The position numbers were made by a program, and so were the translations under genes. 64,000 nucleotides of DNA from Candidatus Cloacimonadales bacterium (GTDB taxonomy: Bacteria; Cloacimonadota; Cloacimonadia; Cloacimonadales; JAFGVF01). The notes beneath the pieces were generated by a model, which saw only the letters and a list, made by a program, of their open reading frames with translations, searched no databases and had not been told where the DNA came from. Location: assembly GCA_963663475.2 (NCBI GenBank), contig CAXXJV010000001.1, positions 2,816,001-2,880,000 of the forward strand, written 5' to 3'. Below, piece after piece: positions 50-56,333 of this stretch. Within the stretch, counting starts at the first letter, position 1; the number at the start of each line of letters is the position of its first letter.

Positions 50-211
50 CCGAATGGTGCAGTAGAACTTTGATGAAGAGTGCTAGATTCTTTTAGCAAA
101 AGTAAGTTACAGAATTTGAAGGCATATAATATATATATTCCTGAAAATTATGTAGCTTACTTTTGCAAAAGAAGATAGTGCTATTCGCAAAGGTCTACTG
201 CTTTATATGGG
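50..211 (+). mobile_element. Family A MITE-like hairpin element, full length (162 bp)
   Basis: Ends CCGAATGGTGC...GCTTTATATGGG, TTAAA on both sides (45-49, 212-216), self-complementary over its full length, homologous to the other copies. Confidence 0.85.
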
Positions 212-410
212 TTAAATTACATCTATAACAACAAAGAGTTTTTTTAGAATAGTTGTCAAGGAGATAATTACTTTTTTTAGATAAATTGTTTCTTAGTTGT
301 AAATTAGCCTAAAAAATGGTCTCTCTCTAAAGTAGAGTTGGTATAATTTAGTTCATGTGTTCAGTTTTTGTCTAAAAGAGAGGATGTCCATATCAGCAAA
401 ATCAATAATA

Positions 411-497
411 ATGTCGTCCTTCCAGGGCTAAGATAAATCTTGGATTATGTATACAGGGTCTACCGAACCTGACTATCAAATGACATCCCTTCGGGAT
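411..497. repeat. Degenerate REP-like palindromic cluster
   Basis: GTCCTTCCAGGGC, CAGG..CCTG and ATCCCTTCGGGAT mini-hairpins; layout similar to 32406-32467. Confidence 0.4.
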
Positions 498-522
498 TTA
501 TTGATTCTCCAATAATAAATTC

Positions 523-744
523 GATTCTCTCCAAAGTAGAGAGGTTTTTTGAAAAAAATAAAAAAAAGTTTAAATATAGAAAGTACTAAAGAAAACACTT
601 GCTCAGAGTCAAATAAATGCGTGCCTATTTATGGTCATAGAAAAAATGATTTGTGAAATTAGAACTATTTCTGGTTAATTAGTGTAAAGAATCTTCTTTT
701 CTTTTCACATTTATTGCATTTCCCTCACTACTTTGAAGAGAGCC
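523..744. mobile_element. Putative family C TIR element (about 222 bp)
   Basis: GATTCTCTCCAAAGTAGAGAGG (523-544) is inverted relative to CCTCACTACTTTGAAGAGAGCC (723-744), 18/22 match; a third similar end at 318-341. Confidence 0.45.
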
Positions 745-763
745 TTAAAATCTTATAACATTT

Positions 764-831
764 CTCAAAAATAATACAGTAGATTTTTGATAATAGCTGA
801 ATATTGTCTAAAAACCTACTGCAAGATTGGT
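764..831 (-). mobile_element. Degenerate short-class family A copy
   Basis: Aligns by eye to the reverse complement of 19184-19257 (AATAATACAGTAGATTTTTGATAATAGC...TCTAAAAACCTACTGC). Confidence 0.55.
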
Positions 832-860
832 TTTAAGCTTGATTGAAATATTTATTAAAT

Positions 861-1289
861 TTATTCTTGACTTTCTAAATTTTTAAGCCCCTTAGCTACG
901 AAGATTAAGGCAAGTCCTAAAAGGATAAGAGAAATTTGTTTACCTGAAGAAGTAACGATATTATCCCACATAGTAGATTTAAGTTCTGTTAGACCTTTTT
1001 CGTATTCTGTTTCAAGTTCAACGCTATAAGAAGCAATAGTAGAGTCTGAGAGACTTTCTAAATACATAAGGTCTTCGGCAGATAATTCTTCAGTACCAAT
1101 ACCTTGCTTATAGTTTAGAGTTTGTTGGATCATTTCTTTACTTTGTTCATATTGATTTTTATATGAAGCTTTTTCTAAATTATAGGCATCGACATCACCT
1201 TTAATAGATGTAAAAGTCAGGAATACTCCTAAAAGAAGTGCAATTAACCCGATTGAGTTTACTACATTTGAGTAAGTGTTTCTTTTCAT
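861..1289 (-). CDS. Hypothetical membrane protein with two hydrophobic segments
   Basis: 142 aa ORF, hydrophobic N- and C-terminal segments, GGAG SD. Confidence 0.7.
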   Translation of the reverse strand: MKRNTYSNVVNSIGLIALLLGVFLTFTSIKGDVDAYNLEKASYKNQYEQSKEMIQQTLNYKQGIGTEELSAEDLMYLESLSDSTIASYSVELETEYEKGLTELKSTMWDNIVTSSGKQISLILLGLALIFVAKGLKNLESQE

Positions 1290-1300
1290 TTTTATAGCTC

Positions 1301-2068
1301 CTAGTTATTATTTGCAATTAAGGAAGCACCAAGTGCTCCAGTTATTATTGGGGTTTGGTAAGTATATATTGGTACTTGTAACAAATCTTCCAATATAATT
1401 TTCATGGATTTATTAAAAGAGACACCTCCTGTGAAAGCCACAGGTGTCTGCCAGTTTAAAGAATGGACTTGATTAATAATTCTTTTAGCAATAGACTTAT
1501 GAACAGCTTTTATAATCGTATTGCGAGAATAGCCTTTAGCTATCATGCCAATTATTTCTGATTCAGCAAAGACTACACAGGTTGAATCAATATCAATTTC
1601 AGTTTCTGCATGGAAAGCAAGATCAGACAATTCATCTACAGAAGTTTCAAGTATAGTAGCTACTACTTCCAAGAATCTGCCTGTTCCAGCAGCACATTTA
1701 TCATTCATAACGAAATCAATTACTTTATTATTTTCGTCTAAGGTAATGACTTTAGAATCTTGTCCTCCTATATCGATGACAGTTCTAGTTTCTGGATTCA
1801 GAAAGGATATGCCACGAGCGTGACAGATGATTTCAGAAGATATTTTATCTCTAAAGTCTACTAATTTCCTACCATAACCTGTTGATACGACTCTTTCAAC
1901 TTTATCTAGCTTATGTTTCTTTAAGATATTATCATAGAGTTTTTGGGCAGTAAGCTTTGGAGTTACTCCAGTAGCAGTATATTTCCAATCAATAATTTTA
2001 TTTTTTGAATGATCAAAGAGGACTATTTTACTGGTAGTTGAGCCGACATCAATTCCTATTGTAAGCAT
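1301..2068 (-). CDS. Acyl-CoA dehydratase activase (HgdC/BcrAD/BadFG ASKHA ATPase, 4Fe-4S)
   Basis: Motifs GIDVGSTTSK, STGYGR, IDIGGQDSK, NDKCAAGTGRF, STCVVFAESE. Confidence 0.9.
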   Translation of the reverse strand: MLTIGIDVGSTTSKIVLFDHSKNKIIDWKYTATGVTPKLTAQKLYDNILKKHKLDKVERVVSTGYGRKLVDFRDKISSEIICHARGISFLNPETRTVIDIGGQDSKVITLDENNKVIDFVMNDKCAAGTGRFLEVVATILETSVDELSDLAFHAETEIDIDSTCVVFAESEIIGMIAKGYSRNTIIKAVHKSIAKRIINQVHSLNWQTPVAFTGGVSFNKSMKIILEDLLQVPIYTYQTPIITGALGASLIANNN

Positions 2069-2074
2069 ATCTTA

Positions 2075-4612
2075 TTACCTATAGATTTGAGTATAAAGGT
2101 TATTGCTAGTAAAGTAAGTTTCAGCTATTTGAGCAATATCATCAAATGAGACCTCTTGTAGTCGTTTTTCTCTATTAAGATAAAAGTCATAGCTATAACC
2201 CAAAGAGCTAAGGATACCTAAGGAGCTGGCTTGAGAAGCCACACTTTCATCGTCAAGTAAACGCTGTCCATTGATAAAGTTTTTAGTAAGTTCCATTTCT
2301 TCTTTAGTAACATTATTTTTAATAATATCCTTCATTATCTTTTTCATTGAAGCTATAGCTTGTTCTTCCCTATTCCTATCAACAATGGCATAGTTAGCAA
2401 AGAAACCAACTTCAGAAAGGGCTGTAAAGTCAAAACCTACACTGTAGGCAAGGCCGAGTTTCTCTCTTAGTTCATTAAAGAGACGAGAAGAAATCTCCCC
2501 TCCGATAATTTGGGATAAAACGTGGAAGGCAACATTAAGTCTGTAATCATTGGCATTACAGGCGAAGCCACCTATATGAATAATAGATTGGTCATTATCA
2601 TAATCAAAGATATGTCTCTTTTTAGAAGGTGGAGTATAGATGACTTTTTCCTCTACCTGAGAATGATAAGAAGTAAAATTAAAAGTATTTTCAACAGTTC
2701 TAATAATATTATCAAAGTGAATATCCCCAATCACAACTAAGCTCATTTGAGATAAGTCTAAGAATTCTTTATGCCAAGAATTAATTCTCTTTCTTGTAAT
2801 TTTAGTTACATCAGATAATTCACCAGTTTTATTGATAAGATTAGAATTTCTTCCAAACAAGAATTGGTTAAATTTCTTTACTGCATCTTTTGTAGGGAAG
2901 TCATGAATTCTTCTCAAGTTTGATCTGACAGATTGTTTAATATTATGCAAATGATGAATAGGAAATTGAGGTTCTCTGATTAAGTCTGCAATTAGTTGCA
3001 GACCTTCAGAGATATACTCACCAAAGCACTTGACCTTGAAGCCAGAAGTCTCAATTCCATTATGAACATTTAGGTTAATCCCTCTTTGCTTGCAGTAATC
3101 AACTAACTCTTCATAGGAATATTTTTTTGTACCAAATTGCATTAAAGCTAAGGTAAAGAAGTTAATCCCTCTTAGCTCTACTGGTTCACAGAGCTGAGAA
3201 ATTTTTCTGGTTAGAGATATCCCTACAGTTGGTTTACCTAAAACTTTCTTCATAATAATTTTCATACCATTGCTAGTGGTATATTCCATGTAATTATTAT
3301 TCTCATTAGAGGTTAACACTTCATTTTGACTACTTTTAATATCTTTTTCTAATTTATCAAGAAAGTGATTTTTTGTTCCTAAGTGAATAATTTTCAAGTT
3401 ATCAAGTTTATAGAATTTATTTGCTACATCTAAAAGATGTTGAATATCTAAAGATGCTAATCTAACAGGATAACGAAGAATACCTTCATAGCCACTATCA
3501 AGTTCTTCAACACCTAGAACACTAGCAAAGTTTTCAACATATTCAAAAGCATATTTCCAACTATGCTCCTGTTCAACTTTTATCTTTCTTAACTCTTCAT
3601 AAGTTAATCCTTGAATTCTCATACTATTATACTCTTCAATGAAAATTCTACAGATATCTTCTAGGCAAGTATTAGATTTTGGCACAATTAGAATTATTGA
3701 AAGACCGTCATAGTGGCCTGATATTGACTGTACTTGGATACTGGTAACTAACTGTTCTTTAATATATAGTCTCTTGTATAGTCGCGAGTTTTTACCGATA
3801 GCAAAGCCTTTAGTAATCAAGGATAAAGCTAAGCCATCTTTTGTTTTCTCACTAATTTCAGGAATAACAAATGCTAGAATTTCCTGATTTAGATCTTCAT
3901 TAACCACTGTGTGAGTAGAAAAGCCTGTTTGGTAGATATTAGGACAGCTTTCAAACTCAAGATTATCATTAGGTAACCAAGAAGCAAAATATTTTTCTAC
4001 TATACTTTTTATAGAGTTAAATTTAAAATCACCACTGATAACTAGAAAGCAGTTATTGGCTTTATAATACTTTTGATAAAAAGCTCTTAAATCATCAGGA
4101 GTAGAGCTTTCTAAATTATCTAAATGACCAATTATTGGGTTATGATAAGGGCTTTCTTGGAAATAAAACTGAGGTATTTTCTCTACAAAATCTTCTTCAG
4201 GATCATTAGCATACTGCTTTAATTCTTCTATAACCACCTTCTTTTCTGTTGTGAATTCTTCATCAGAAAAGTTAGCTCTCATGGCAAGTTCAGACAGCAG
4301 TTCAAGTCCATTCTCAAGGTATTTTGATGGAAGAGTTAAATAATGACAGGTAGAATCATACTCGGTATAAGCATTGATATTGGCACCTAAAGAAGATGCC
4401 TTTTCCATTATTTTATTATCTGGATAGTTTTGGGTAGATTTAAATACTAAGTGTTCCATTAGATGAGAGTATCCAGACTCATTACTTTTCTCGTGAACTG
4501 AGCCCACTTTTACATAGAGCTGAAGACTTATAATAGGGTTTGATTTATCCTTAGCAACAATAATTTTTAGGCCATTATCGAGGAAATGGTGCTTGACATG
4601 GGGATTTATCAT
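2075..4612 (-). CDS. M16 (pitrilysin/insulinase) family zinc peptidase
   Basis: Inverted zinc motif HLMEH, NAYT, two M16 halves, SSRLF..LREK.GLAY. Confidence 0.9.
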   Translation of the reverse strand: MINPHVKHHFLDNGLKIIVAKDKSNPIISLQLYVKVGSVHEKSNESGYSHLMEHLVFKSTQNYPDNKIMEKASSLGANINAYTEYDSTCHYLTLPSKYLENGLELLSELAMRANFSDEEFTTEKKVVIEELKQYANDPEEDFVEKIPQFYFQESPYHNPIIGHLDNLESSTPDDLRAFYQKYYKANNCFLVISGDFKFNSIKSIVEKYFASWLPNDNLEFESCPNIYQTGFSTHTVVNEDLNQEILAFVIPEISEKTKDGLALSLITKGFAIGKNSRLYKRLYIKEQLVTSIQVQSISGHYDGLSIILIVPKSNTCLEDICRIFIEEYNSMRIQGLTYEELRKIKVEQEHSWKYAFEYVENFASVLGVEELDSGYEGILRYPVRLASLDIQHLLDVANKFYKLDNLKIIHLGTKNHFLDKLEKDIKSSQNEVLTSNENNNYMEYTTSNGMKIIMKKVLGKPTVGISLTRKISQLCEPVELRGINFFTLALMQFGTKKYSYEELVDYCKQRGINLNVHNGIETSGFKVKCFGEYISEGLQLIADLIREPQFPIHHLHNIKQSVRSNLRRIHDFPTKDAVKKFNQFLFGRNSNLINKTGELSDVTKITRKRINSWHKEFLDLSQMSLVVIGDIHFDNIIRTVENTFNFTSYHSQVEEKVIYTPPSKKRHIFDYDNDQSIIHIGGFACNANDYRLNVAFHVLSQIIGGEISSRLFNELREKLGLAYSVGFDFTALSEVGFFANYAIVDRNREEQAIASMKKIMKDIIKNNVTKEEMELTKNFINGQRLLDDESVASQASSLGILSSLGYSYDFYLNREKRLQEVSFDDIAQIAETYFTSNNLYTQIYR

Positions 4613-5395
4613 CTACTTATTTCTCCCACTTGTTACAGAAGCATAGGCTGAGTGATTATGAATAGATTCAAAATTTTCAGATTCAACACTATAATCAGTA
4701 ATTCTTTTATCCTTTCTAAGCTCAACAACTACATCTCTAACAATATCTTCAACAAATTTAGGATTATCATATCCCTTTTCGGTAACATACTTTTCATCTG
4801 ATCGCTTTAAGAGAGAATATACTTCACAAGAAGCTGCAGCTTCTACAATTTCAATTAACTCTTCAAGCCAAACATATTCTGAGTATTTGATAGTTACTGT
4901 TACAATAGACCGCTGATTATGAGCACCATATTCACTAATTTCCTTGGAACAAGGACATACTGTTGTTATCGGAACCTTAACCCCGATTTGCATTTCAAAT
5001 TCATCTCGATGAGATGCAATAAAGAAACAATCATAAGACATTAGGGATTTAATTGCCGAAACAGGTGCAGTCTTATTTATAAAATAAGGGAATGCTATAT
5101 TCACAAAAGCTGAATCAGCATCAAGTCTTTTTTTTGTTTCCAGAACAAAGTTCTCTATTTCAGAAATCACATTTCTTTGATGATACTCATTTAAAATCTC
5201 AATGAATCGAGACATATGTGTTCCTCTATGATGATGAGGAAGTTCCACAAATATATCAAGATCAGCTATAGTATGCTGAGTTTCATTAGTCCTATCTTCT
5301 ACTATAATGGGGTACTTAACCCCTTTTACACCAACTTTATCAATAGTTACCTTACGGGTATCATTCAAGTTTTGGATATCAATTGTATTTTTCAT
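4613..5395 (-). CDS. folE2: GTP cyclohydrolase IB (FolE2)
   Basis: Motifs GTHMSRF, TTVCPCSKEIS, GAHNQRS, NPKFVED, ESIHNH. Confidence 0.95.
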   Translation of the reverse strand: MKNTIDIQNLNDTRKVTIDKVGVKGVKYPIIVEDRTNETQHTIADLDIFVELPHHHRGTHMSRFIEILNEYHQRNVISEIENFVLETKKRLDADSAFVNIAFPYFINKTAPVSAIKSLMSYDCFFIASHRDEFEMQIGVKVPITTVCPCSKEISEYGAHNQRSIVTVTIKYSEYVWLEELIEIVEAAASCEVYSLLKRSDEKYVTEKGYDNPKFVEDIVRDVVVELRKDKRITDYSVESENFESIHNHSAYASVTSGRNK

Positions 5396-6495
5396 TATTC
5401 ACCATCAATAAATTCATTATATAAGTAATAGTCAATCCCTTTGGAATTATCAGTTTTTTCAGTTTTAAGTGAGGTTGCTTCCCAGGTTTTACCAACTTCA
5501 TCATAGATATCGCTATAAATAATAGCTTCAGTGTCATTAAGAGTTTTTAAGTAATCAATAGCACTATCACTATCAAGCATAAAGAGAGCTGTAGACAAGG
5601 CATCGGCCTCAAAAGCTGTTGGAGCTAAAATAGTTACTGATGCATTTTGGTGGCATGGATAACCTGTGACAGCATTTATCAGGTGATGATAGCGAATATT
5701 CCCTACATCAAAATATTGCTGATAATCACCAGAAGTTGCCACAGACATATTTTTTAGATTAGTTAGTTGGGCTATTATATCCGAAGAGTTACGGGGATGT
5801 TGAATACCTAGAATAATCTTCTGAGATATATCACCAAAATATCTAATAGAAGATATCTGATCAACATAACCAGCCTTGACTCCTTGAGAAAGAATCATTT
5901 CAACAGTTTTATCAACTATGTAACCTTTTGATAGTGCCCCAAAAGTAATCTGCATATTAGCAGGAAGCTGTATATAGTCTTTATCATATTGAACTTTAGA
6001 AAAATCAACTAGCTGTAATTTTTCTTTAATATCGGTTGAATCAGGTATCAAGCTAGCATTAAACTCAGAGTTACCCCTCTCAGCCTTATCAAAATGCCAT
6101 AAATCATAAAGAGGTTTGATTGTTATATCAAACTCTCCATCAGTGAGCTTATACATTTTATCAGCCTCTAATAAGAGTTCATAAATATCTTGGTCAATAG
6201 GAACCTTTTTTCCTTGGGCATGATTAATTTTATAAACAATACTTTCCTCATAATCTTCAGAGAATTTATATATTAAATCTTGCATGTAAGCAAAAGCATG
6301 TCTTGTAATCTCTTCCCCATTTTTTTTATCGCTTAGGACATATATTTCAGTTCTTAAACTATTACCCTGAGTGGTCGGAGTATAGTTCAAATACTTACTA
6401 TCAACAAATTCATATTCAACAGTGGCAAATTTATATATAGCAATAATTATAACTAAAGCTAATAATATCAATGATGTAATTTCTTTTCGTGTCAT
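5395..6495 (-). CDS. apbE: FAD:protein FMN transferase (ApbE family)
   Basis: Motifs FDITIKPL..LW, GALSKGYIVD, ATSGDYQQYF, YHHLI, ADALSTALF; N-terminal membrane anchor. Confidence 0.9.
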   Translation of the reverse strand: MTRKEITSLILLALVIIIAIYKFATVEYEFVDSKYLNYTPTTQGNSLRTEIYVLSDKKNGEEITRHAFAYMQDLIYKFSEDYEESIVYKINHAQGKKVPIDQDIYELLLEADKMYKLTDGEFDITIKPLYDLWHFDKAERGNSEFNASLIPDSTDIKEKLQLVDFSKVQYDKDYIQLPANMQITFGALSKGYIVDKTVEMILSQGVKAGYVDQISSIRYFGDISQKIILGIQHPRNSSDIIAQLTNLKNMSVATSGDYQQYFDVGNIRYHHLINAVTGYPCHQNASVTILAPTAFEADALSTALFMLDSDSAIDYLKTLNDTEAIIYSDIYDEVGKTWEATSLKTEKTDNSKGIDYYLYNEFIDGE

Positions 6496-6548
6496 ATTTC
6501 TCTAATCCTATTTTTAATATTTTACCACTTCAATATTAACACAATATT

Positions 6549-6554
6549 TGTCAA
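6549..6554 (-). promoter_or_regulatory. TTGACA -35 box upstream of the apbE operon
   Basis: TGTCAA on the + strand; the same hexamer recurs upstream of many minus-strand operons (about 254, 15693, 18692, 19325, 26982, 32268, 40128, 54734). Confidence 0.5.
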
Positions 6555-6582
6555 TCTAAACATCATTTTTATGGATATTATA

Positions 6583-6617
6583 GAAGGAAAAGGCAGGTTT
6601 GATGCCCTGCCTTTCTT
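6583..6617 (-). terminator. Intrinsic terminator after the secreted-protein cluster
   Basis: AAAGGCAGG/CCTGCCTTT stem with a U-rich tail on the minus strand. Confidence 0.65.
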
Positions 6618-6686
6618 ATGTTAATAAATCTTTTTATTTGCCTTAGAATTGCCCGTGGAAGTTAGAATGTTAAGGGTCAGATAATA

Positions 6687-9149: not shown

Positions 9150-9167
9150 AATGTATCCTTTTTTTTG

Positions 9168-9197
9168 ATTGCAGAGCTTCGTGTGAAGCTCTGCAAT
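9168..9197. other. Perfect 13-bp intergenic hairpin
   Basis: ATTGCAGAGCTTC-GTGT-GAAGCTCTGCAAT; no U-tail on the coding strand, so more likely an mRNA stability element than a terminator. Confidence 0.5.
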
Positions 9198-9218
9198 GTA
9201 ATGGTTATTTTATCTATT

Positions 9219-11420: not shown

Positions 11421-11473
11421 TAATACCTCCTTTTAGGATTTTTAATAGTTTTGAGTTTAGATATTTCCATACC

Positions 11474-11502: not shown

Positions 11503-11511
11503 TTAGACTAT

Positions 11512-19183: not shown

Positions 19184-19257
19184 CTCGAATGGTGCAGTAG
19201 AGTTTTAGAGAAGAGTGCATCTTCTGCTATTCTCAAAGATCTACAGCATTATTTGAG
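19184..19257 (+). mobile_element. Family A element, internally deleted 74-bp class
   Basis: CTCGAATGGTGC...GCATTATTTGAG with a perfect TTTAA duplication (19179-83, 19258-62). Confidence 0.85.
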
Positions 19258-19414: not shown

Positions 19415-19456
19415 CCTCAATAGTGCAATTCGCTAAAGCCTACTGCATTACTAGGG
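19415..19456 (+). mobile_element. Family A 42-bp mini element
   Basis: CCTCAATAGTGC...GCATTACTAGGG flanked by TTTAA/TTTAA; same length and layout as 56275-56316. Confidence 0.75.
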
Positions 19457-19624: not shown

Positions 19625-19765
19625 ATGTTTTTAGCTTTTATGAGATGGAAACAAAGACTCTTTTTTGCAGTAACAGAATTGTTTATCTCAAAAAAGAAGA
19701 ACTGTGAAATTTACTACGACGAAGATTTACAGCGATATCGGGAAGAACAGCATATCTGGTATTAA
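19625..19765 (+). CDS. Small protein, 46 aa (MFLAFMRWKQRLFFAVTELFISKKKNCEIYYDEDLQRYREEQHIWY), absent from the ORF track
   Basis: AAAGGAG SD 5 nt before the ATG, upstream promoter, intact frame to TAA. Confidence 0.6.
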   Translation: MFLAFMRWKQRLFFAVTELFISKKKNCEIYYDEDLQRYREEQHIWY

Positions 19766-19788: not shown

Positions 19789-19950
19789 GCCCAATAGTGC
19801 AATAATGCTTTGCGAATAGCTGATTGACTTTTGTAAAGGTAAGTTCCATAATTTTCAGAAATATATATTTTTATATGACTTAATTTTATGTAACATGTTT
19901 TACTAAAAGAAGATTAGGCTATATATCAAAGTACTACTACATCATTTAGT
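19789..19950 (-). mobile_element. Family A element, full length (162 bp), diverged, reverse orientation
   Basis: Aligns to the reverse complement of 50-211; TATAA duplicated at 19784-88 and 19951-55. Confidence 0.8.
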
Positions 19951-27019: not shown

Positions 27020-27180
27020 CTCAGGTAGTCTAGTAGAGCTTTAGTGAAGCGTGCAGATTATTCTAGCAAAATAGCTTACAGAATTTTTAAGCATATATTT
27101 TATATATTCGGAGAAATTATGGATCTTACTTTTGCTGAAGAATATAGTGTTATTCACAAAGGTCTACTGCATTAATGGGC
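27020..27180 (+). mobile_element. Family A element, full length (161 bp)
   Basis: Homologous throughout to 29935-30096; flanks TTTAA/TTTAG. Confidence 0.85.
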
Positions 27181-29921: not shown

Positions 29922-30190
29922 GGCTCAAGTTCAACCCAAATGGTGCAATAGAGCTTTAGAGAAGAGTGCTAGATTCTTTTAGCAAAATAGCTTACAGAAT
30001 TTTGACGCATATTTTTTATATATTCGGAGAAATAATGGAAGTTACTTTTGCAAGAGAATATAGTGCTATTCTCAAAGAACTATTGCATTATTTGGGTTCA
30101 AGTCTGGTGAGAAGAATATAGGAAATTGAGAATATTTCATTAAATTTCTGATTTACTTGAGTTTTTTTCCACCAAACTTGAACTTGAGCC
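29922..30190. mobile_element. Family B TIR element (about 102 bp empty), interrupted by a family A copy
   Basis: With the A copy removed: GGCTCAAGTTCAAGTCTGGTG ... CACCAAACTTGAACTTGAGCC, a 21-bp TIR with 1 mismatch; related ends at about 29874, 40423, 54964 and 56334-56346. Confidence 0.7.
29935..30096 (+). mobile_element. Family A element, full length (162 bp), nested in family B
   Basis: CCCAAATGGTGC...GCATTATTTGGG with a perfect TTCAA duplication (29930-34, 30097-101). Confidence 0.9.
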
Positions 30191-32295: not shown

Positions 32296-32384
32296 CCGAA
32301 TGGTCCAGTAGAACTTTGATAATACTTCGCTAAAGCTAGGTATCACAGGTGAAGAGTGCTAGATTCTTTTAGCAAAATAAGTTA
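32296..32384 (+). mobile_element. Family A left half carrying the 30-bp internal module, 3' truncated
   Basis: TTTAA-CCGAATGGTCCAGTAGAACTTTG-[ATAATACTTCGCTAAAGCTAGGTATCACAGG]-TGAAGAGTGCTAGATTCTTTTAGCAAAATAAGTTA. Confidence 0.75.
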
Positions 32385-32405
32385 AATTTTTCATATACAT
32401 AATAA

Positions 32406-40070: not shown

Positions 40071-40196
40071 AATTATCTCCCAAATATAAATTATTTTTGT
40101 AGCTAATTATTGTTTATATTTGATAGATGTCAAGTATTATTATTATATAAATGTTCCTCTTGGCAACATTAACTTAACTTAAAGAATTAACATAAG

Positions 40197-40323
40197 GCGG
40201 GGAAAGTAAGATGCTTGCTTCGCAAGAATGAATAATTAAAAATGAAAAATGAAAAATAAAGCGGGGAAAGTAAGATGCTTGCTTCGCAAGAATGAATAAT
40301 TAAAAATGAAAAATGAAAAATAA
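40197..40323. repeat. Direct tandem repeat, two copies with 64-bp period
   Basis: GCGGGGAAAGTAAGATGCTTGCTTCGCAAGAATGAATAATTAAAAATGAAAAATGAAAAATAA at 40197 and 40261. Confidence 0.9.
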
Positions 40324-40324
40324 T

Positions 40325-40855
40325 GAAGTGACGGGAGTTGCTCACGGAGTAGCGACTTCCGACACTCTTCACCCGAAGTCCCTTGCCTACGGCTGAGGAA
40401 GTTTGGTCTCCAACAAATAGCAGGCTCAAGTTCAAGTCAGGGATAAGTCTTTATGAAAGTAATTCCTAAATTGAAAACCTGACACCGCTAGTGGCAGAAA
40501 ATGCTTGGGAGTAAAGCTTGTGTGAAGTGGTTGCATCTTGCGTACACAAAAACTAGAAAGGTAGTGAGTGGATGCATCTTGCATACACAAGAGGCTCTGA
40601 AAGGATCTTTATTCTGGTGGCAAGATGCCACCAGTCCATAGCTAACTGTTTCCACAGTGCTGATAGCGGGTAGGGATACCCGTCTTCCCAGTTATGGACT
40701 GACTGCATTCCTGCTGTCAGAACTGTGTGGAAGCAGGGATGCTTCCACTCCATAATAATTTCTGCTGTCAGAACTGTGTGGAAGCAAGGATGCTTCCACT
40801 CCATAATAATTCCTGTTTGTCAGATTTTTGTGGAAGCAGGGATGCTTCCACTCCA
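40325..40855. repeat. Cluster of REP-like palindromes including three tandem GTGGAAGCARGGATGCTTCCACTCC units
   Basis: Units at 40727, 40778 and 40830 (51-52 bp period); other hairpins with GGAG/GGAC feet and GCATCYTGC-type loops at about 40525-40720. Confidence 0.8.
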
Positions 40856-40867
40856 CAAGTTAAATTA

Positions 40868-42275: not shown

Positions 42276-42289
42276 ACTTATCTCTCCTT

Positions 42290-43434: not shown

Positions 43435-43450
43435 AAGATCTCCTTCAAAA

Positions 43451-45259: not shown

Positions 45260-45271
45260 TCTTTTTCCTGT

Positions 45272-48315: not shown

Positions 48316-48581
48316 TCCGCCTCACCAAACCGTTCATTAAATAGTTGTTCAATTTCTCTTAATAAGTATTCCTCATCTGGACCATCGATCTTTAGGTTCA
48401 GCTCTGCCCCACATTCAGCAGCTAACATCATTACCCCCATGATACTTTTACCATTAACCTTCATACCTTCCTTTTCAATATGGAAGTCTGAACGGTATTT
48501 AGTAGCTACCTTAACCAACATTGCTGATGGACGAGCATGTAAGCCCAACCTGTTCTCTACTTGTATTGTTTTTTCTATCAT
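48312..48581 (-). CDS. ptsH: HPr phosphocarrier protein
   Basis: GLHARP (His15) and NGKSIMGVM (Ser46). Confidence 0.95.
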   Translation of the reverse strand: MIEKTIQVENRLGLHARPSAMLVKVATKYRSDFHIEKEGMKVNGKSIMGVMMLAAECGAELNLKIDGPDEEYLLREIEQLFNERFGEAE

Positions 48582-48606
48582 CTTGAAATCCTTTTCTCAG
48601 CTGAAA

Positions 48607-49569: not shown

Positions 49570-49590
49570 TAGCCTAGTTCCGTTGTTAAT

Positions 49591-49626
49591 GAGGGTGTAC
49601 TAATTTAAAAAGAAAAGTACACCCTC
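49591..49626. terminator. Hairpin between hpf and hprK
   Basis: GAGGGTGTACT/AGTACACCCTC 11-bp stem. Confidence 0.55.
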
Positions 49627-49638
49627 TTAAGTTAAAGA

Positions 49639-50178
49639 TTATGGTTGTAAAAGTTTAAAATGAGTATCATCTTTTTTAACTAAAACATTGATTCTATCAG
49701 TCTCAACATTTTTAAAGATATAATACTCTTTCTTTTGGGCTTCAAATTCTTGTAACGCTTCATCAACTGTAAGAGTATCAGGAACAACTCTCTTAGTTTT
49801 CACTAATTTATGATTCTCTTCAGCCTCGCCTTTTTTATAAAGAGCTGCGCGAGAGAAGTATGGATCAAAGTTATCTTTCAATCCTTTTTTGTGATGATCA
49901 GTTACTTTATCTTTAAGTTTCTTGATTTGGGCTTCCATCTTTTCAATTGTGTCATCAATAGCAATATACATGTCCATAGCTTCGCTATTACTTTGCAATG
50001 TAAACTTAGAAGCATGCAAAACAATTTCGCATTGGTTCCTACTAGACTCTACCGCAAGGGTAACATGAATGGTGATAATATGATCAAAATATCTTTTAAG
50101 TTTGATCAAACTTTCTTCAACATAGTCTCTGATTGCATTAGTTAATTCGAAATGGCGAGCAGTTATTGTAATATGCAT
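49639..50178 (-). CDS. hpf: Ribosome hibernation promoting factor (long HPF/RaiA)
   Basis: ITARHFELT.AIRDY, DMY.AID, C-terminal sigma54-modulation domain. Confidence 0.93.
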   Translation of the reverse strand: MHITITARHFELTNAIRDYVEESLIKLKRYFDHIITIHVTLAVESSRNQCEIVLHASKFTLQSNSEAMDMYIAIDDTIEKMEAQIKKLKDKVTDHHKKGLKDNFDPYFSRAALYKKGEAEENHKLVKTKRVVPDTLTVDEALQEFEAQKKEYYIFKNVETDRINVLVKKDDTHFKLLQP

Positions 50179-50186
50179 AAAGCCTC

Positions 50187-51062
50187 CTACTTTGTTATAT
50201 ATTGTTGTATTCTTTCAGCATGGTAAGAGCTTCTTACTAAAGGACCAGATTCAACAAAAATGAATCCCAGCTCTTCTCCATATTTTCTATAATTTTCAAA
50301 AATATCTGGGTGAACATATTCTTTAACAGGTATATGGTCTCGACTTGGTTGGAGATACTGTCCGATAGTTACAACTTGGACATTATGGTCATATAGGTCA
50401 TGGAGAAGTTGTTTTACCTCTTCTTGTGTCTCACCTAAGCCTACCATAAAACCACTTTTAGTAATTATCTCAGGATTAATTTCTTTAACCTTTTTGAGTA
50501 GTTCCAGAGACCTATGATAGTTAGCCATGGGTCTAACCTCTGGATATAACCTTTGAATTGTTTCAACATTATGGTTCAAGACAGTTGGTTTAGCTTCAAT
50601 AATAGTTTGAAGAGCTGGCCAATTGCCTTCTAAATCAGATATAAGTGTTTCAGTTGTCACTTGAGGAGAGCATATATCATGGATAGCATTAAGAACTTTA
50701 ACAAATTGTGATGCTCCTCCATCAGGTAAATCGTCTCTAGTCACTGTAGTAACAACTATATGTTTTAGTTTCATTTCTTTAGATAACTCTGCAATGTGGA
50801 TTGGTTCTAAAGGATCAGGAGCAAGCAATGAGCTTGTTTTATCAACTGCACAGAATCGGCAGTTTCTAGTACATACTTCACCTAAAATCATAAAAGTAGC
50901 AGTACCTCTATTAAAGCATTCACCTTGATTTGGGCATCTAGCAGAATTGCATACTGTATGTAGATTGAATTTTGACAAGTATTGTCTTACTATGTTTGCT
51001 TGTTCATTGCCTAATCTATTAGCTTTCAACCACTCAGGCTTTCTAAGTTTATTCATCGACAT
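50187..51062 (-). CDS. lipA: Lipoyl synthase
   Basis: TVC..A.CPN..EC, CTRNCRFC, HNVET, GQYLQP, RSSYHA. Confidence 0.96.
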   Translation of the reverse strand: MSMNKLRKPEWLKANRLGNEQANIVRQYLSKFNLHTVCNSARCPNQGECFNRGTATFMILGEVCTRNCRFCAVDKTSSLLAPDPLEPIHIAELSKEMKLKHIVVTTVTRDDLPDGGASQFVKVLNAIHDICSPQVTTETLISDLEGNWPALQTIIEAKPTVLNHNVETIQRLYPEVRPMANYHRSLELLKKVKEINPEIITKSGFMVGLGETQEEVKQLLHDLYDHNVQVVTIGQYLQPSRDHIPVKEYVHPDIFENYRKYGEELGFIFVESGPLVRSSYHAERIQQYITK

Positions 51063-51093
51063 TACCAACCTCTAATTTATATTTATATTATAA

Positions 51094-52491
51094 TCAAATT
51101 TTATGAACTGACAAAGAAATTGTGTCTTCAATTGATTCCATAACAATTTCTGATAAAGTAGGATGGGCAAAGACTATTTTCTCAAGATCATGAACGCTAG
51201 CATCTTTACCTATCAAAATGCCAGCTTGAGCAATCAATTCTGATGCCTGTAAGCCAACAATATGCATACCAAGAATTTTTTTAGTTTTGGCATCAGCAAT
51301 AGTTTTAGCAAAGCCAAAGGTATTACCCATTCCCATTGCTTTTCCACTAGCAGTATAAGGGAACTTACCTACAAGAATATCACCATAGCTTTCTTTAGCT
51401 TCTTCCTCAGTAAGGCCAACAGAAGCTACCTCTGGGTTTGTGAAAGTACAACGAGGTACATTTACGTAATTTATAGCCTGGATATCATGGGGATTATCTT
51501 CTAATTCACTCTTGATTAGTTCTGCAACCAAAAGTCCTTGTTTTGATGCAGTATGAGCAAGAAGTTGTTTACCATTAAGGTCACCAATAGCATAGAGGTT
51601 ATCTACCCCAGTTCTCATATATTCATCCACGACAATAGATCCCTTATTTCTTTCAAGCTGGATATTAGTAAAATCGATATCACAGGCAGGTGATCTACCA
51701 ATACTAACTAATACTTTTTCAGCTTCCAGTGTTTTATCATCAGAAAGAATCAATTTAATACCATTATCAGTTTCTTCATAATCCTTAACGCCCTTCTTAA
51801 GAATAAGTTTCATTTTATTTCTTTTGAAAGCCATAGCCACTCTTTTTGATATTTCTTCATCTTCCCCAGCTAATAATCTAGGAAGAAATTCAACGATAGT
51901 AACTTGTGTACCAAGTTGCTGGAAGATAGAGGCGAATTCGCATCCAATTACTCCACCTCCGACAACAGCAAGAGATTTAGGTAATTCTTCTAGTTGTAGG
52001 ATATCTTTTGAGCTAAGAATTTTTTTATGGTCAAACTTCATGAAAGGGAGTTCAGTAGGTTTAGAACCAGTTGCTAAGATAACAAAGTCAGCACTCACCT
52101 CTTCTTCTTGGCTAGTAATGTAGAATTTATCATCTGATTTAGAAATTTTAGTTACTAGAGAATTAATAAGAGGTAGTTTTTGTTTCTTGAACATAAATTC
52201 AATTCCGCTCACTAGTTTTTCTACTACTTCATCTTTTCTTTTGTATATTTGAGAAAAGTCAATTTCTGGATTCTCTAAGTTAATACCAAATTCTTTTGCT
52301 TCCTTTATTTCGCTAAAGAGTTCAGCAGTTTTAACTAGTGTTTTAGTAGGAATACAGCCCCAGTTAAGACACACACCCCCAAGTCTTTCTTTTTCAAAAA
52401 CAATGGTTTCTATATTATATTGATTTAATCTTAAGGCAGTTACATAGCCTCCTGGGCCACCACCAATAATAGCTACTTTAAAGTGTTTCAT
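51094..52491 (-). CDS. lpdA: Dihydrolipoyl dehydrogenase
   Basis: GGGPGGY, GGVCLNWGCIPTK, GGGVIGCEFA, AHPTLSE. Confidence 0.95.
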   Translation of the reverse strand: MKHFKVAIIGGGPGGYVTALRLNQYNIETIVFEKERLGGVCLNWGCIPTKTLVKTAELFSEIKEAKEFGINLENPEIDFSQIYKRKDEVVEKLVSGIEFMFKKQKLPLINSLVTKISKSDDKFYITSQEEEVSADFVILATGSKPTELPFMKFDHKKILSSKDILQLEELPKSLAVVGGGVIGCEFASIFQQLGTQVTIVEFLPRLLAGEDEEISKRVAMAFKRNKMKLILKKGVKDYEETDNGIKLILSDDKTLEAEKVLVSIGRSPACDIDFTNIQLERNKGSIVVDEYMRTGVDNLYAIGDLNGKQLLAHTASKQGLLVAELIKSELEDNPHDIQAINYVNVPRCTFTNPEVASVGLTEEEAKESYGDILVGKFPYTASGKAMGMGNTFGFAKTIADAKTKKILGMHIVGLQASELIAQAGILIGKDASVHDLEKIVFAHPTLSEIVMESIEDTISLSVHKI

Positions 52492-53951
52492 TAGTTTCTC
52501 CTCAATCTACTATTTAAAATATTTAATTCATCACGATATTTAGCAACAATTCTTCTTGAGACATTTAATCCATCATTTTTAAGCATTTTTACAATATCTT
52601 GGTCAGTTAATGGTTTCTTTTTATCTTCAGCATCAACGTATTTTTGAATGAATGTTTTAACTTTCTGTCTGGAAATAGATTCAAAATTATTGTCAAGTCC
52701 AGCTGTTGAAGTGAAGAATTTTTTAAGAGGGTAAATACCGAAAGGAGTATCTGCGTATTTGTCCTTTACGACTCTAGAAATTGTTGATTCACTAACTCCG
52801 ATATCTTCAGCTATCGAAGAATAGTTAAGCGGCAATAGAACTCCTGATTGGTTATAGAAGAAGTCATATTGATGTTTGATAATGGATGTCATAACTCTTT
52901 CTAAAGTTCTAACCCTCATATACATTGATTTAATTAAAAACTTAGCTGAATTTATCTTATCTCTCACATAGTGGACAGTTTCTTTATCTACACTTGCCGA
53001 GTTGATTAGTTTCCTGTACCTGGAATTTATTACTAGGTTAGGTGAATAAGAGTCATTAACTATAACTTGAAATTCATCGCCAATTTCTCTGACAATTACA
53101 TCAGGTGTTATATATTTATCATTACTTACAACTAATCTAAGGCCTGGTTTAGGGTCAAGTTTAGAGATTTGATCTCTTAAGAAAGTAATATATTCTAGGG
53201 ATACTTGATATTTAGCAGCTAGTTTTTGATAGCGTCTATGAATTAGGTCTTCGAAATCTTCTTGTAAGATAGCAATTAATATTTTATTACTTTTCTGATC
53301 TTCATCTAGTTGGGAAATGAGGCATTGAGCCATGTTACAGGCAGTTAATCCTTTAGGGTCTAATGACATTATAATTTGATGAATTTCTTCAGCTCTAGTG
53401 AGTGGGATATCATATATCTCAGCTACTTCTTTGATAAAATCACTATCTCTAATAAAGCCATATTGGTCAACAGAATCTATCAAATATGTTGCAAAATCAT
53501 ATTCATCTTCAGTCATAGGGAAAGAATAAAGTTGCAAGAGATAGTCAGCCATTTTATCTTCTGGAGCCTTAAGATATTTTTCATATAAAGGTCCTTCATC
53601 ATCATCTTTATTGTATGAATAGTCCTTATTATGATTAGTCATTTGATGAAATTCATTCCAAGAATCAAGAATCTCTGTCAATTCCTGAGCTTCTTCTAAG
53701 GTTTTAGAAACCTCATCATTTTCTTCACCAATTTCCTTTTCTTCACTAACTTCTTCATCTCTGATAATATCATCATCACTGTTTGAGTCATCGATATCTC
53801 TCATTTCAAGTAAGGGATTTTTCATTATTTCTTGTTTGAGATGAAGCTCTAGTTCCATCAATGGCAATGTTAGCATCTGCAAAGATTGTAGCATCTTTGG
53901 TTTAAGCGCTAACTCTTGTTTCTGTTTTATCGTTAAAATTTGGTCTAACAT
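52491..53951 (-). CDS. rpoN: RNA polymerase sigma-54 factor
   Basis: Gln/Leu-rich region I, ESTISR HTH, RpoN box SRRIVAKYR. Confidence 0.95.
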   Translation of the reverse strand: MLDQILTIKQKQELALKPKMLQSLQMLTLPLMELELHLKQEIMKNPLLEMRDIDDSNSDDDIIRDEEVSEEKEIGEENDEVSKTLEEAQELTEILDSWNEFHQMTNHNKDYSYNKDDDEGPLYEKYLKAPEDKMADYLLQLYSFPMTEDEYDFATYLIDSVDQYGFIRDSDFIKEVAEIYDIPLTRAEEIHQIIMSLDPKGLTACNMAQCLISQLDEDQKSNKILIAILQEDFEDLIHRRYQKLAAKYQVSLEYITFLRDQISKLDPKPGLRLVVSNDKYITPDVIVREIGDEFQVIVNDSYSPNLVINSRYRKLINSASVDKETVHYVRDKINSAKFLIKSMYMRVRTLERVMTSIIKHQYDFFYNQSGVLLPLNYSSIAEDIGVSESTISRVVKDKYADTPFGIYPLKKFFTSTAGLDNNFESISRQKVKTFIQKYVDAEDKKKPLTDQDIVKMLKNDGLNVSRRIVAKYRDELNILNSRLRRN

Positions 53952-53954
53952 TAT

Positions 53955-54704
53955 TTATTTTACCACTGTATTGCTTTGAAATCTATCACCTAAATAGAGT
54001 TCTCTAGCTTTAGGATTATTAATTAATTCTTCAGATGTACCAGTAACCATTATTTGTCCTTCAAAAGTGATATAAGCTCTATCAACAATTTTAAGTGTTT
54101 CGGTAACATTATGGTCTGTTATCATTATCCCAATATTTTTAGCTTTCAGCTTAAGGATAATGTCTTGAATATCATTGATTGAGATTGGATCAACTCCTGC
54201 AAAGGGTTCATCCATAAAGAGGAAGGAGGGATTGGTTACCAGGGAACGAGTTATCTCTAATTTTCTGCGTTCTCCACCAGATAAGGTATAAGCTTTTTGC
54301 TTAGCTACTTTCGTTAGGTTTAACTCAGCTAGGTAATCATCTAGCATTTTCTTTCTATCTTTCTTAGCCACATCAACAGTTTCCAAAATTGCTAAAATAT
54401 TCTGTTCAACAGTTAATTTATGAAAGATTGAAGGAGCTTGAGCTAGATAACCGATGCCTAATTGGGCTCTTTTATACATGGGTTTGTGAGTAATATCAGT
54501 ATCATTGAAAAGGACTTTGCCTTTATTTGGTTTTGTTAAGCCCAAGATCATGTAAAAGGTCGTAGTTTTTCCCGCACCATTAGGGCCTAGAATACCAACG
54601 ACTTCTCCTTGAGAGATATTCAAACTCAAGTCATTGACTACTCTTCGCTTACCGTATATTTTAACTAAGTTTTTAGCTTCTATGTGATTTTTTGTTTTGT
54701 CCAT
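53955..54704 (-). CDS. lptB: LPS export ABC transporter ATP-binding protein
   Basis: GPNGAGKTTTFYMI.G, LSGGERRKLEI, DEPFAGVDP, ITDHNV.ETL; position upstream of rpoN. Confidence 0.95.
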   Translation of the reverse strand: MDKTKNHIEAKNLVKIYGKRRVVNDLSLNISQGEVVGILGPNGAGKTTTFYMILGLTKPNKGKVLFNDTDITHKPMYKRAQLGIGYLAQAPSIFHKLTVEQNILAILETVDVAKKDRKKMLDDYLAELNLTKVAKQKAYTLSGGERRKLEITRSLVTNPSFLFMDEPFAGVDPISINDIQDIILKLKAKNIGIMITDHNVTETLKIVDRAYITFEGQIMVTGTSEELINNPKARELYLGDRFQSNTVVK

Positions 54705-54710
54705 ATACAT

Positions 54711-54739
54711 AAAATAATGACTTTAAGCTTACTTGTCAA
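54711..54739 (-). promoter_or_regulatory. Sigma70-type promoter of the lptB-rpoN operon
   Basis: TTGACA-N17-TATTTT on the minus strand. Confidence 0.55.
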
Positions 54740-54963
54740 GTAATTTAAGCAATTTTTTTTCCAAAAATAGAAAAAAGTTTTTTTAATTTTTTATAAGTGC
54801 TAAAATAGCATGAAAATAAAGCTCAATTTTAGGTCTATTAGAAAGCCTGTTATCCCTTTTAAAGGTCTAATTAGCCTCTATTAGCAATCATATGGCACTG
54901 GTTCTTCTAGTCTCAAGAAAAGCAATAATATAAAATTAATCAGGTTAGCAACTAGATAAATAA

Positions 54964-54992
54964 GGTTCAAGTTCAAGTCTGGTAGAAGAAAA
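54964..54992 (+). repeat. Family B left end
   Basis: GGTTCAAGTTCAAGTCTGGTAGAAGAAAA matches the B TIR. Confidence 0.65.
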
Positions 54993-55000
54993 TTGTTAAA

Positions 55001-55190
55001 CCGAATGGTGCGGTAGAACTTTTGTAATACTTCGCTAAAGCTACTCATCACAGGTGAAGAGTGCAGATTATTCTTGCAAAATAGCTTACAGAATTTTGAC
55101 GCATATAATATATATATTCGGAGAAATTATGGATCTTACTGTTGCAGAATAATATAGTGCTATTCCCAAAAGCCTAGTCCATTATTTGGG
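55001..55190 (+). mobile_element. Family A element with the 30-bp internal module (190 bp)
   Basis: CCGAATGGTGC...CCATTATTTGGG; module at about 55024-55054; flanks do not match (TTAAA/ATTAT). Confidence 0.85.
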
Positions 55191-55280
55191 ATTATTGTAG
55201 TAGCCACTCTACTCAAAAGATATCCAAAAAGAATATTCCTCTCATTTTGTCATATTTTAAGTAAACATCCTTATTCCTTC

Positions 55281-55329
55281 CTTTACACTCTTTCGATGAA
55301 AATCCCACTTTCATCGAAAGAGTGTAAAG
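55281..55329. repeat. Perfect 21-bp inverted repeat with a 7-nt loop
   Basis: CTTTACACTCTTTCGATGAAA-ATCCCAC-TTTCATCGAAAGAGTGTAAAG. Confidence 0.9.
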
Positions 55330-55531
55330 AATGAAATAAGTATCCTCTAATCTATTTAGACAATTTTAATATTTTTTTCAAAAAATGGACCACTTTTGAA
55401 AAAATGGACTCTTAAATATTATGAGGGATTGTTAAATCCAATAATGCAGGAGAGCTTTGTGGTTAGCTCAATTTCTTGGGCAATATCTGGATTGTAATTT
55501 CAGCAAAATTTAAGAAAATGAGGATAAAGCA

Positions 55532-56041
55532 ATGGTTGTTATAGAATTCAAATTACCTCACGGGTTAAAAGCTAAAGTTAGAAGAGATGGCTATTCTATC
55601 GTAAAATATTCCAATCAACCAGCCTATCGCCTCCGTAAAAAAAATTCTCCTAAGATAGGTAAAAATCATCATAAGTTCGGGAATATAATGCAAGAGCTAA
55701 AAATAGCTTATAGAAATCTTAGTAATCGTGATAAACAAGCTCTAAGAGAAAGAAAAAAAAGTGAGAGAAATACTAAATCTGACTGGATTCAATTTATCAG
55801 AGAATATTATAGAAAGGCTAACCAGCTTGTTCTTAAAGAAAAAAGAAAAGTAGAAAATGAAGACAATCACTTAAGATTAAACCAAGCTAAAGCAAAAGTA
55901 GAAAATGAAGACAATCACTTAAGAACAAACCAAGCTAAAAGAAAGAATCAAGAGAAAAATAGTAAGAATATAGGTTTATTGAAAAACTTGATTAAAGTTT
56001 TTCAGAATACTAGCCAGATTTTGTATAAAAAAAAGGAATAA
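55532..56041 (+). CDS. Hypothetical very basic protein with an internal 16-aa (48-bp) tandem duplication
   Basis: AGGA SD, 169 aa, K/R-rich; KVENEDNHLRxNQAK twice (55846, 55894). Confidence 0.65.
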   Translation: MVVIEFKLPHGLKAKVRRDGYSIVKYSNQPAYRLRKKNSPKIGKNHHKFGNIMQELKIAYRNLSNRDKQALRERKKSERNTKSDWIQFIREYYRKANQLVLKEKRKVENEDNHLRLNQAKAKVENEDNHLRTNQAKRKNQEKNSKNIGLLKNLIKVFQNTSQILYKKKE

Positions 56042-56095
56042 TAATAAATATTATTAATTCGAGTGTTGATAAAGTCACTCAATATAGTATTTTAA

Positions 56096-56333
56096 CCCGA
56101 ATGGTGCATTAGAGCTTTGGTAATACTTCGCTAAAGCTACGTATCATAGGTGAAGAGTGCAAAATCTTTTAGCAAAATAGTTTACATAATTTTGACGCAT
56201 ATATTTTACATATTCGGAGAAATTATGGATCTTACTTATGCAGAAGAATATTCTGCTATTCACAAAGGTATAATCCCAGATAGTGTAGTAGAGCTTTGTG
56301 AATAGCACTATTTGGGATAATGCATCATTGGGG
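56096..56333 (+). mobile_element. Family A element with the 30-bp module and a nested mini copy
   Basis: CCCGAATGGTGC...GCATCATTGGGG, flanks TTTAA/TTGAA, followed by a family B right end (TTGAACTTGAGCC). Confidence 0.85.
56275..56316 (-). mobile_element. Family A 42-bp mini element nested in the right arm of another A copy
   Basis: CCCAGATAGTG...CACTATTTGGG with a perfect ATAAT duplication (56270-74, 56317-21). Confidence 0.8.

Follow-up and report, generated by a model that had tools for sequence, protein, structure and literature searches.

Dispersed over a stretch of 64,000 nucleotides from the genome of Candidatus Cloacimonadales bacterium (the window, G000:C1:2816001-2880000, where G000 is the source genome and C1 one of its contigs) are copies of a short repeat, family A, which is very probably a miniature inverted-repeat transposable element (MITE) of an IS1380-family insertion sequence (IS) circulating in the Cloacimonadota. 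As to its identity the repeat is ordinary, a MITE with a recognizable parent IS. What is new here is the conservation, across two genera, of a whole-length hairpin on one strand only, together with an orientation that is linked to replication.

The source genome comprises 3.30 Mb in two contigs, with 33% G+C and an estimated completeness of 99%. A first profile, built from six copies in the window, gave 425 matches in it that merged into 271 non-overlapping loci; a second hidden Markov model (HMM), trained on 124 full genomic copies, found 347 loci that occupy 36.8 kb, or 1.1% of the genome, so that the hundreds of copies which a preliminary description of the window had anticipated are indeed present. 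The unit is 161 bp long and non-coding, starts with CCC and finishes with GGG, and its consensus ends, read inward as terminal inverted repeats, are CCCAGATAGTGTAGTAG and CCCAAATAATGCAGTAG; there are variants of ~190, 65-123 and 42 bp. Among the HMM loci, 144 are full length (100 of 158-165 bp, 33 of 178-200 bp with ~30 additional nt in the left arm, 8 of 151-157 bp and 3 of 166-177 bp), 28 are internally deleted forms of 65-123 bp, 19 of which retain a 5-bp direct repeat, and 147 are further pieces. All window copies had been described as intergenic, and they do lie between open reading frames (ORFs) of at least 70 amino acids (aa), the sole overlap being with a 74-aa ORF (56144-56368) that is largely repeat sequence; genome-wide, 146 of 162 confident loci are free of overlap with any ORF of at least 80 aa in the crude ORF set made here. 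The numbers in tandem, convergent and divergent spacers (85, 41 and 36 copies) are roughly proportional to the shares of these classes in the intergenic bases (55%, 21% and 24%). By DNA search the family is found in five of six congeners and in one other genus of the same family, at ~75% identity; the search of 29 genomes of other families gave nothing beyond one marginal 27-nt match.

The preliminary description had also proposed that insertion duplicates a 5-bp target, and this is borne out. With the borders fixed by alignment, 62 of the 124 full copies have an exact 5-bp duplication, while other offsets or lengths give 0-10 identities, apart from sub-words of the same repeat. When a slip of up to 2 nt is allowed the number rises to 91 of 124, against 29.1±4.2 (maximum 41) across 200 shuffled pairings of the flanks, a high background that is due to the target preference: the duplicated pentamers are TTTAA (26), TTAAA (21), ATTAT (8), ATAAT (8), TTTAT (6) and others, that is, W-T-W-A-W words that are mostly TTTAA or TTAAA. 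Empty sites tell the same story. Three filled copies sit in other repeats, and every displayed empty paralogue of these (3, 4 and 1, respectively) holds the pentamer once; the site of the window copy at 19789 is empty in all four of the sister species examined. Moreover, in the conspecific run X7 a contig joins position 29928 to 30096, so that 167 nt are absent from it, equal to the element (162 nt) and one pentamer; this contig has the depth of its flanks and is short, 170 nt in all, of which 47 nt lie on the shorter side. The contigs of runs X5, X6 and X9 stop within repeats, with many short joints from other copies, and were not used. For the copy at 27020 the spacers of the sister species are too diverged for an exact empty-site alignment, and only the difference in length is usable. 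Insertion sites are seldom shared between species: a family copy occupies the matching G000 interval for just one of six mappable insertions of the congener G004 and one of eight of the congener G002, so the insertions in these two genomes and in G000 are largely separate events. Copies often adjoin or nest in one another with one pentamer in common (e.g. G000:C1:1540815-1541169), and several independent copies occupy the same site of another short repeat, with the flanks TTCCTATATTAT and ATTATTCCCACC; it seems that certain targets within repeats are preferred.

The parent IS was met in the congener G002. A PF13701 search of that genome gave seven identical copies of a 469-aa transposase (P0001; E 7.1e-26, profile positions 3-434 of 435), with partial matches in G001 and G005. 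Six aligned loci define an IS of 1,694 bp that starts CCCAAATAATGCATTAG and finishes CTGCATTATTTGGG; its ends begin CCCAAATAATGCA, and TTTAA or TTAAA flanks five of the six copies examined. Relatives of this transposase, at 62-77% identity, occur in records of Cloacimonadales or Cloacimonadota metagenome-assembled genomes (MAGs) and in one MAG record titled Bacteroidales. Five related ISs are complete (1,606-1,694 bp) and have ends like those of the G002 IS; three of them have a perfect 5-bp duplication, one a duplication off by one base, and one starts at the edge of its locus and is unreadable. The IS1380 family is characterized by a length of ~1.6-1.7 kb, ends starting with CC and a 4-5-bp duplication, and the partner IS has a PF13701 DDE transposase, 1.6-1.7 kb, CC ends and a 5-bp duplication. 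Between MITE and IS, 13-17 of the first 20 nt are identical, and further in the similarity is near chance; these ~17 terminal nt are all that the MITE, which has no coding capacity, has in common with the IS, a pattern that fits an element sharing only the transposase-binding ends. The IS1380-family parentage proposed in the preliminary description is thus upheld by this IS, its PF13701 transposase, the common ends and the 5-bp duplications. In its sequence, family A accordingly has the features of a MITE: it is short and non-coding, bears terminal inverted repeats, makes a duplication of which empty sites have a single copy, is dispersed in polymorphic copies and shares its ends with an autonomous element, the latter in G002 and other Cloacimonadota records but not within G000.

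With respect to movement, an IS1380-type transposase would bind the shared ends and mobilize the MITE in trans; to our knowledge, the transposition mechanism of the IS1380 family is poorly characterized. The earlier suggestion of mobilization in trans gains from the ends shared with the IS and from the lack of coding capacity, but the presumed driver is missing from G000. A transposase gene bounded by the same ends, which the preliminary description had proposed to seek, is present in G002 and in other Cloacimonadota records and was not found in G000: the PF13701 search there gave no candidates, tblastn with the G002 transposase a best E of 0.15, blastn with the G002 IS no match at E 1e-3, and end motifs paired at 600-4,000 bp no recurrent length such as an autonomous copy would give. 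A PF01609 search of G000 yielded two two-copy ISs with ends unlike those of family A. Because G000 has no such transposase, its family A copies are probably stranded; this genome would have lost its parent IS or never had it, leaving ~350 loci whose mobilization either lies in the past or needs an incoming IS.

The second feature that the preliminary description had read from the letters, pairing of the whole element into one stem, is confirmed by folding. The copy at 29935 folds end to end, both as RNA (-69.3 kcal/mol, z -10.4, none of 200 shuffles as good) and as DNA (-35.3 kcal/mol, z -9.7); the 190-bp variant folds more weakly (z -2.5). The two strands are far from equivalent. The consensus top strand reaches -61.2 (RNA) and -32.0 (DNA) kcal/mol, against -39.4 and -17.3 for the bottom strand, and it is the top strand that folds more stably in 137 of 142 copies of G000 and in 19 of 20 from G003, G006 and G008, a comparison that is partly circular, as the strand labels come from a profile trained on G000. 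In an alignment of 33 copies from seven genomes and two genera, RNAalifold predicted 49 pairs; 95.3% of the cells of this alignment pair, compared with 86.9±0.5 in shuffles (none of 500 as high) and 38-49% when the partners are slid. The covariation score reaches 0.298, with shuffles giving 0.151 (again 0/500), and 124 cells are changed on both sides as compared with 41 in shuffles. The non-Watson-Crick cells are 165 G·T, 8 A·C and 64 of other kinds; columns with at least three such cells number 13 for G·T and none for A·C, and the wobble positions differ between the genera. Compensatory changes maintain this near-perfect palindrome in different species and in two genera, but they do so for the top strand only. 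This G·T-rich top strand is mostly the lagging strand, where the genome skew is opposite (G and T are expected to accumulate on the leading strand), and since the asymmetry opposes that skew it appears to be a property of the element lineages and not of local mutation.

The orientation of the copies was compared with that of replication, leading and lagging strands being assigned from GC skew, which changes sign at ~605 kb and ~2,215 kb, two points separated by roughly half the genome, and from gene-strand bias only (61% of the ORFs in our crude set are on the G-rich strand). The switch points of MITE orientation coincide with those of GC skew and gene strand, the ORF switch falling in the same 100-kb bins as that of the MITE. 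Of the full copies of G000, 121 of 142 (85%; binomial p 3e-18) have their top strand as the lagging strand, as have 146 of 198 pieces. Within tandem gene pairs, 46 of 52 copies have this orientation if the genes are co-directional with replication and 29 of 33 if they oppose it, so the bias is independent of the direction of neighbouring genes. Two congeners show it too: G004, with 13 of 14 copies (from twenty 20-kb samples, 14% of the genome), and, to a lesser degree, G002, with 21 of 28 (from forty samples, 26%), the skew in both being judged by eye from noisy samples. The dnaA gene (G000:C1:1434495-1434977) lies mid-replichore, at ~1.43 Mb, where there is no skew switch, and was for that reason rejected as a marker of the origin; it has similar places in four congeners, and the origin may not adjoin dnaA in this genus.

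Several simple causes of the bias were considered and set aside. KOPS-like or Chi-like words do not provide one: of the 50 most leading-skewed 8-mers, the 40 best copies hold two on the bottom strand and one on the top, and skewed 7-mers are mostly on the top strand (41 vs 4), contrary to such an idea. Nor does an asymmetric target: the flanks show no asymmetry of composition, and TTTAA (26) and TTAAA (21) occur at similar frequency. The orientation of the IS itself is an uninformative guide, since the seven G002 copies are divided 4:3 and the left and right ends of the MITE cannot be mapped to the left and right inverted repeats of the IS.

As regards the cause of the bias, we infer from the patterns among the copies two main candidates, and the first of them, loss, is given not quite an even chance. 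A 160-nt hairpin with 5-bp direct repeats at both sides is a good substrate for slippage or cleavage on a single-stranded lagging-strand template. Copies with their well-folding strand on that template would extrude the hairpin during replication and would be lost, either by slippage between the 5-bp duplications or by hairpin cleavage, leaving the tolerated orientation in the genome. Counting for this model are the mean DNA folding energies, -22.5 kcal/mol for the strand on the lagging-strand template vs -28.7 kcal/mol for the other; the rise of the bias with folding asymmetry (37/40, 32/33, 24/33 and 28/36 in the quartiles); and the fact that G002, with its live IS, is the least biased genome (21/28). 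The other candidate, to which we give a somewhat smaller though still appreciable chance, leaves the identity of the MITE unchanged and places the bias at the start: an IS1380-type transposase would reach the fork by means of a beta-clamp-binding motif and insert the MITE in one orientation from the outset. The stretch KATGKQL[S/R]LF is present in all six aligned Cloacimonadota transposases, as QLSLF in four and QLRLF in two, and QLSLF is the clamp-binding consensus quoted in PMC3971601. That paper also has clamp binding (in E. coli) by an IS1380-family peptide, which may or may not be the corresponding stretch, and argues that IS orientation biases arise at insertion and not by selection. Oriented insertion would also agree with two observations that tell against loss, namely that the youngest copies are the most biased (41/44 vs 38/49 for the oldest) and that the 190-bp variant, which has little folding asymmetry, is still biased (26/33). 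On the other hand, in the survey of PMC3971601 the IS1380 ISs of three phyla are without orientation bias (P 0.20, 0.34 and 0.67), the seven IS copies of G002 stand at 4:3 on either mapping of the ends (a small number), and the genome with the live IS is more weakly biased (21/28) than those without it (121/142 and 13/14). Neither process alone accounts for the top-strand pairing being kept right to the element centre: loss does not explain it, and oriented insertion gives no account of one-strand hairpin conservation. The remaining, smallest share of the probability falls to causes other than these two.

Considering the hairpin and the replication-linked orientation, family A might instead be a single-strand element of the HUH type, either an IS200/IS605-like palindrome-associated transposable element (PATE) or a repetitive extragenic palindrome (REP/REPIN) moved by a Y1 transposase, and not a DDE MITE. 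It is known that elements of this type are rich in hairpins and take their orientation from replication, family A has both one-strand hairpin conservation and a replichore-tied orientation, and G000 contains four Y1-transposase matches. We nevertheless think this very improbable: variable pentamers are duplicated on both sides of family A and single at empty sites, its ends are shared with a DDE IS whose insertion produces the same duplication, and PATEs, as tabulated in PMC3119063, have neither target duplication nor terminal inverted repeats, both of which family A has. Moreover, its folding strand is on the lagging strand and not on the lagging-strand template, whereas PMC3971601 ties the IS200 bias to lagging-side single-stranded DNA. 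Marginally less improbable, but still a slim prospect, is that the copies are structured RNA genes or transcription signals (small RNAs or terminators) spread by duplication, with a hairpin that is RNA. The tolerance of G·U and intolerance of A·C in the covariation is a classic RNA-helix signature and the RNA fold has a z of -10.4; yet orientation tracks replication rather than the adjacent genes, tandem, convergent and divergent spacers hold copies according to their length, no T-run follows the stem, the 64-kb window has no Rfam match, and the target duplications and insertion polymorphism show transposition. A third proposal keeps the MITE and assigns its movement to a transposase resident in G000, for instance that of IS21-like elements. 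Two IS21-like families with 7-8 copies each have 5-bp flanking repeats in the copies inspected, and 44 of 139 MITE copies are 99-100% identical to a sibling, which suggests recent movement. The ends do not agree, however, being TGT...ACA with internal repeats in the IS21-like elements and TG...CA in an IS3-like one, both unlike CCCAAATAATGCAGTAG, just as are the CAGG...CCTG and CTAATC...GATTAG of the two two-copy DDE ISs, and we regard a resident driver as hardly credible.

Descent of family A from an IS1380-family parent, with a conserved one-strand hairpin and a replication-linked orientation, must itself be weighed against a number of observations. A perfect duplication is missing from 33 of the 124 full copies. 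No transposase for these ends is present in an assembly of G000 that is 99% complete and in two contigs, so mobilization in trans there is at most presumptive. Skew and gene-strand bias are the sole basis for calling a strand leading or lagging, and dnaA lies away from any switch. In the covariation analysis the number of pairs with a change on both sides, 15, hardly exceeds the 13.6 of the shuffles, 107 of 500 of which reach 15, and the relatedness of the copies makes the cell counts overstate the number of independent events. Against this, the points on which the preliminary description had staked its reading, as far as they were checked, came out in its favour: the identity of the flanks exceeds that of shuffles, empty sites have one pentamer, and across the 64-kb window there is no Rfam match at the gathering score, in agreement with its having recognized no described family.

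If we look beyond the identity of the repeat, family A is a DDE MITE with a one-strand, whole-length hairpin, and in two species at least, whose insertions are for the most part independent, 85-93% of its copies point the same way with respect to replication. It is conceivable, if rather doubtful, that the working form of the MITE is one DNA strand folded as a 160-nt hairpin at the fork, its spread or survival being coupled to replication polarity, a coupling so far tied to the HUH single-strand transposons and to Tn7-TnsE. That would mean that IS1380/piggyBac-like transposases, in which the QLSLF clamp motif is conserved, work at forks, and that G·T asymmetry evolves in palindromic MITEs as a way of confining the fold to one strand. 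The family offers a natural system for two questions: in what way palindromes of such length persist in a bacterial chromosome, and whether transposases of the IS1380 type act at the fork. On the practical side, it breaks the short-read contigs of Cloacimonadales MAGs at each copy, contigs ending at the MITE borders, and its insertion polymorphisms could be strain markers in digesters and wastewater.

The copies in the window are collected in Table 1, for which HMM matches were taken at E<1e-3. Nine of the 11 intervals in the preliminary description were recovered by the HMM; the other two, 764-831 and 19415-19456, were missed by it and are by eye degenerate mini forms of 68 bp and 42 bp, while the HMM adds the fragment 55438-55483. 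The six pairs of identical flanks that had been listed can all be read from the sequence (TTAAA, TTTAA, TTTAA, TATAA, TTCAA and ATAAT), and a perfect duplication is missing from the copies at 27020 (TTTAA/TTTAG) and 55001 (GTTAA/ATTAT).

Table 1. Copies and fragments of family A in the window (positions are those of the 64,000-nucleotide stretch)
Positions	Strand	Feature	Evidence and remarks
50..211	+	Full copy, ~161 bp, TTAAA both sides	HMM 147.5 bits (match 50-210)
764..831	.	Degenerate short copy, weak	Below HMM; both ends similar by eye only
19184..19257	+	Internally deleted form of 74 bp (outer arms only), TTTAA both sides	Two abutting HMM end pieces, model positions 2-42 and 123-160 (match 19185-19256)
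19415..19456	+	Mini form of 42 bp, TTTAA both sides	Eye and repeat search (family D5); under HMM threshold
19789..19950	-	Full diverged copy, TATAA both sides, between conserved 46-aa ORF and next gene	HMM 73.4 bits (19790-19948); site empty in G002, G003, G004, G006
27020..27180	+	Full copy, flanks TTTAA/TTTAG	HMM 149.4 bits (27022-27179); spacer ~170 nt shorter in G004, G006
29935..30096	+	Full copy, 162 bp, TTCAA both sides, whole-length hairpin	HMM 153 bits; folds; 167-nt skip in run X7
32296..32397	+	Left part of long variant, truncated	HMM model positions 2-68, 41.6 bits (32296-32393); repeat family D8
55001..55190	+	Long variant, 190 bp, ~30 nt extra in left arm, no perfect duplication	HMM 147.4 bits; weaker fold, z -2.5
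55438..55483	-	Fragment or mini form	HMM 19.3 bits, E 8.6e-4
56096..56333	+	Long-variant copy, right arm interrupted by nested mini copy	HMM model positions 1-149, 129.6 bits (56096-56274)
56275..56316	-	Mini copy of 42 bp nested in the 56096-56333 element, ATAAT both sides	HMM 20.3 bits (56275-56312); inverted repeats I4, I7, I9

Some other features of the window and of the genome may be recorded here. Just upstream of the copy at 19789 is a small ORF of ~46 aa (19626-19765), with a promoter-like and leader region, that is kept in all four sister species. A 48-nt tandem duplication (55836-55931) lies inside a lysine/glutamate-rich 169-aa ORF (55532-56041), and tandem repeats, each with a GC-rich palindrome, occupy the spacer upstream of the large minus-strand genes, at 40176-40303 (64 nt, 2 copies) and 40707-40860 (51 nt, 3 copies). 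Elsewhere in G000 there is a GC-rich repeat of ~110-130 copies, 85-89% of them on the leading strand (k-mers such as TGGGTCGCGGGATTC and CCAGCCCGCG), which is probably a REP-like family; the four Y1-transposase matches could be its partners, of the type of the REP-associated tyrosine transposases (RAYT). The genome also carries an IS3-like element of 1,453 bp in ~8 copies (e.g. C1:56381-57833), two IS21-like elements of 2,366 and 2,369 bp with 5-bp flanking repeats, in 7-8 copies each (e.g. C1:175290-177655 and C1:2636206-2638574), and the two two-copy DDE ISs of ~1.65-1.70 kb (e.g. C1:1550587-1552281 and C1:1122177-1123830), one of them inserted in a REP-like palindrome. Finally, blocks of 10-23 kb recur in three to four copies at 94-100% identity (C1:1-23265, C1:1367842-1391188, C2:1-11050 and C2:307173-330979); they lie at both contig ends and probably explain why the assembly stops there.

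Among known systems, the MITEs of bacteria include the Correia elements of Neisseria, RUP of pneumococcus, Nezha of cyanobacteria and the MaeMITEs of Microcystis (PMC2779907). Family A is likewise small, non-coding, intergenic and present in high copy number, with terminal inverted repeats, target duplications and a presumed dependence on an IS transposase in trans. Neither an IS1380-derived MITE nor a MITE oriented by replichore was found in the open-access text searched. With the ISs of the IS1380 family, of which ISEcp1 and IS1247 are examples and to which the Cloacimonadota loci L013 and L035-L047 belong, it has in common the ~17 terminal nt starting with CC and the AT-rich 5-bp duplication; these ISs carry one PF13701 transposase in 1.6-1.7 kb, whereas the MITE has no transposase and nothing in common with them past the ends. 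It is also unlike them in being a palindrome over its whole length and in its replichore bias, which the survey PMC3971601 does not find for IS1380 ISs. The one-strand hairpin and fork-tied orientation are instead reminiscent of IS200/IS605, PATEs and REP/REPIN-RAYT (for the IS200 bias, see PMC3971601), but these systems use HUH Y1 enzymes and, according to PMC3119063, lack terminal inverted repeats and target duplication. Family A, with its DDE-type ends, has both features and so falls outside the PATE/REP pattern. The eukaryotic transposon piggyBac has CCC...GGG ends and a TTAA target, which the CCC...GGG ends and TTTAA or TTAAA targets of family A resemble. It differs in its 4-bp duplication and eukaryotic host from the 5 bp and prokaryotic host of family A. 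In the piggyBac trees of PMC10813416, IS1380 transposases are used as the outgroup.

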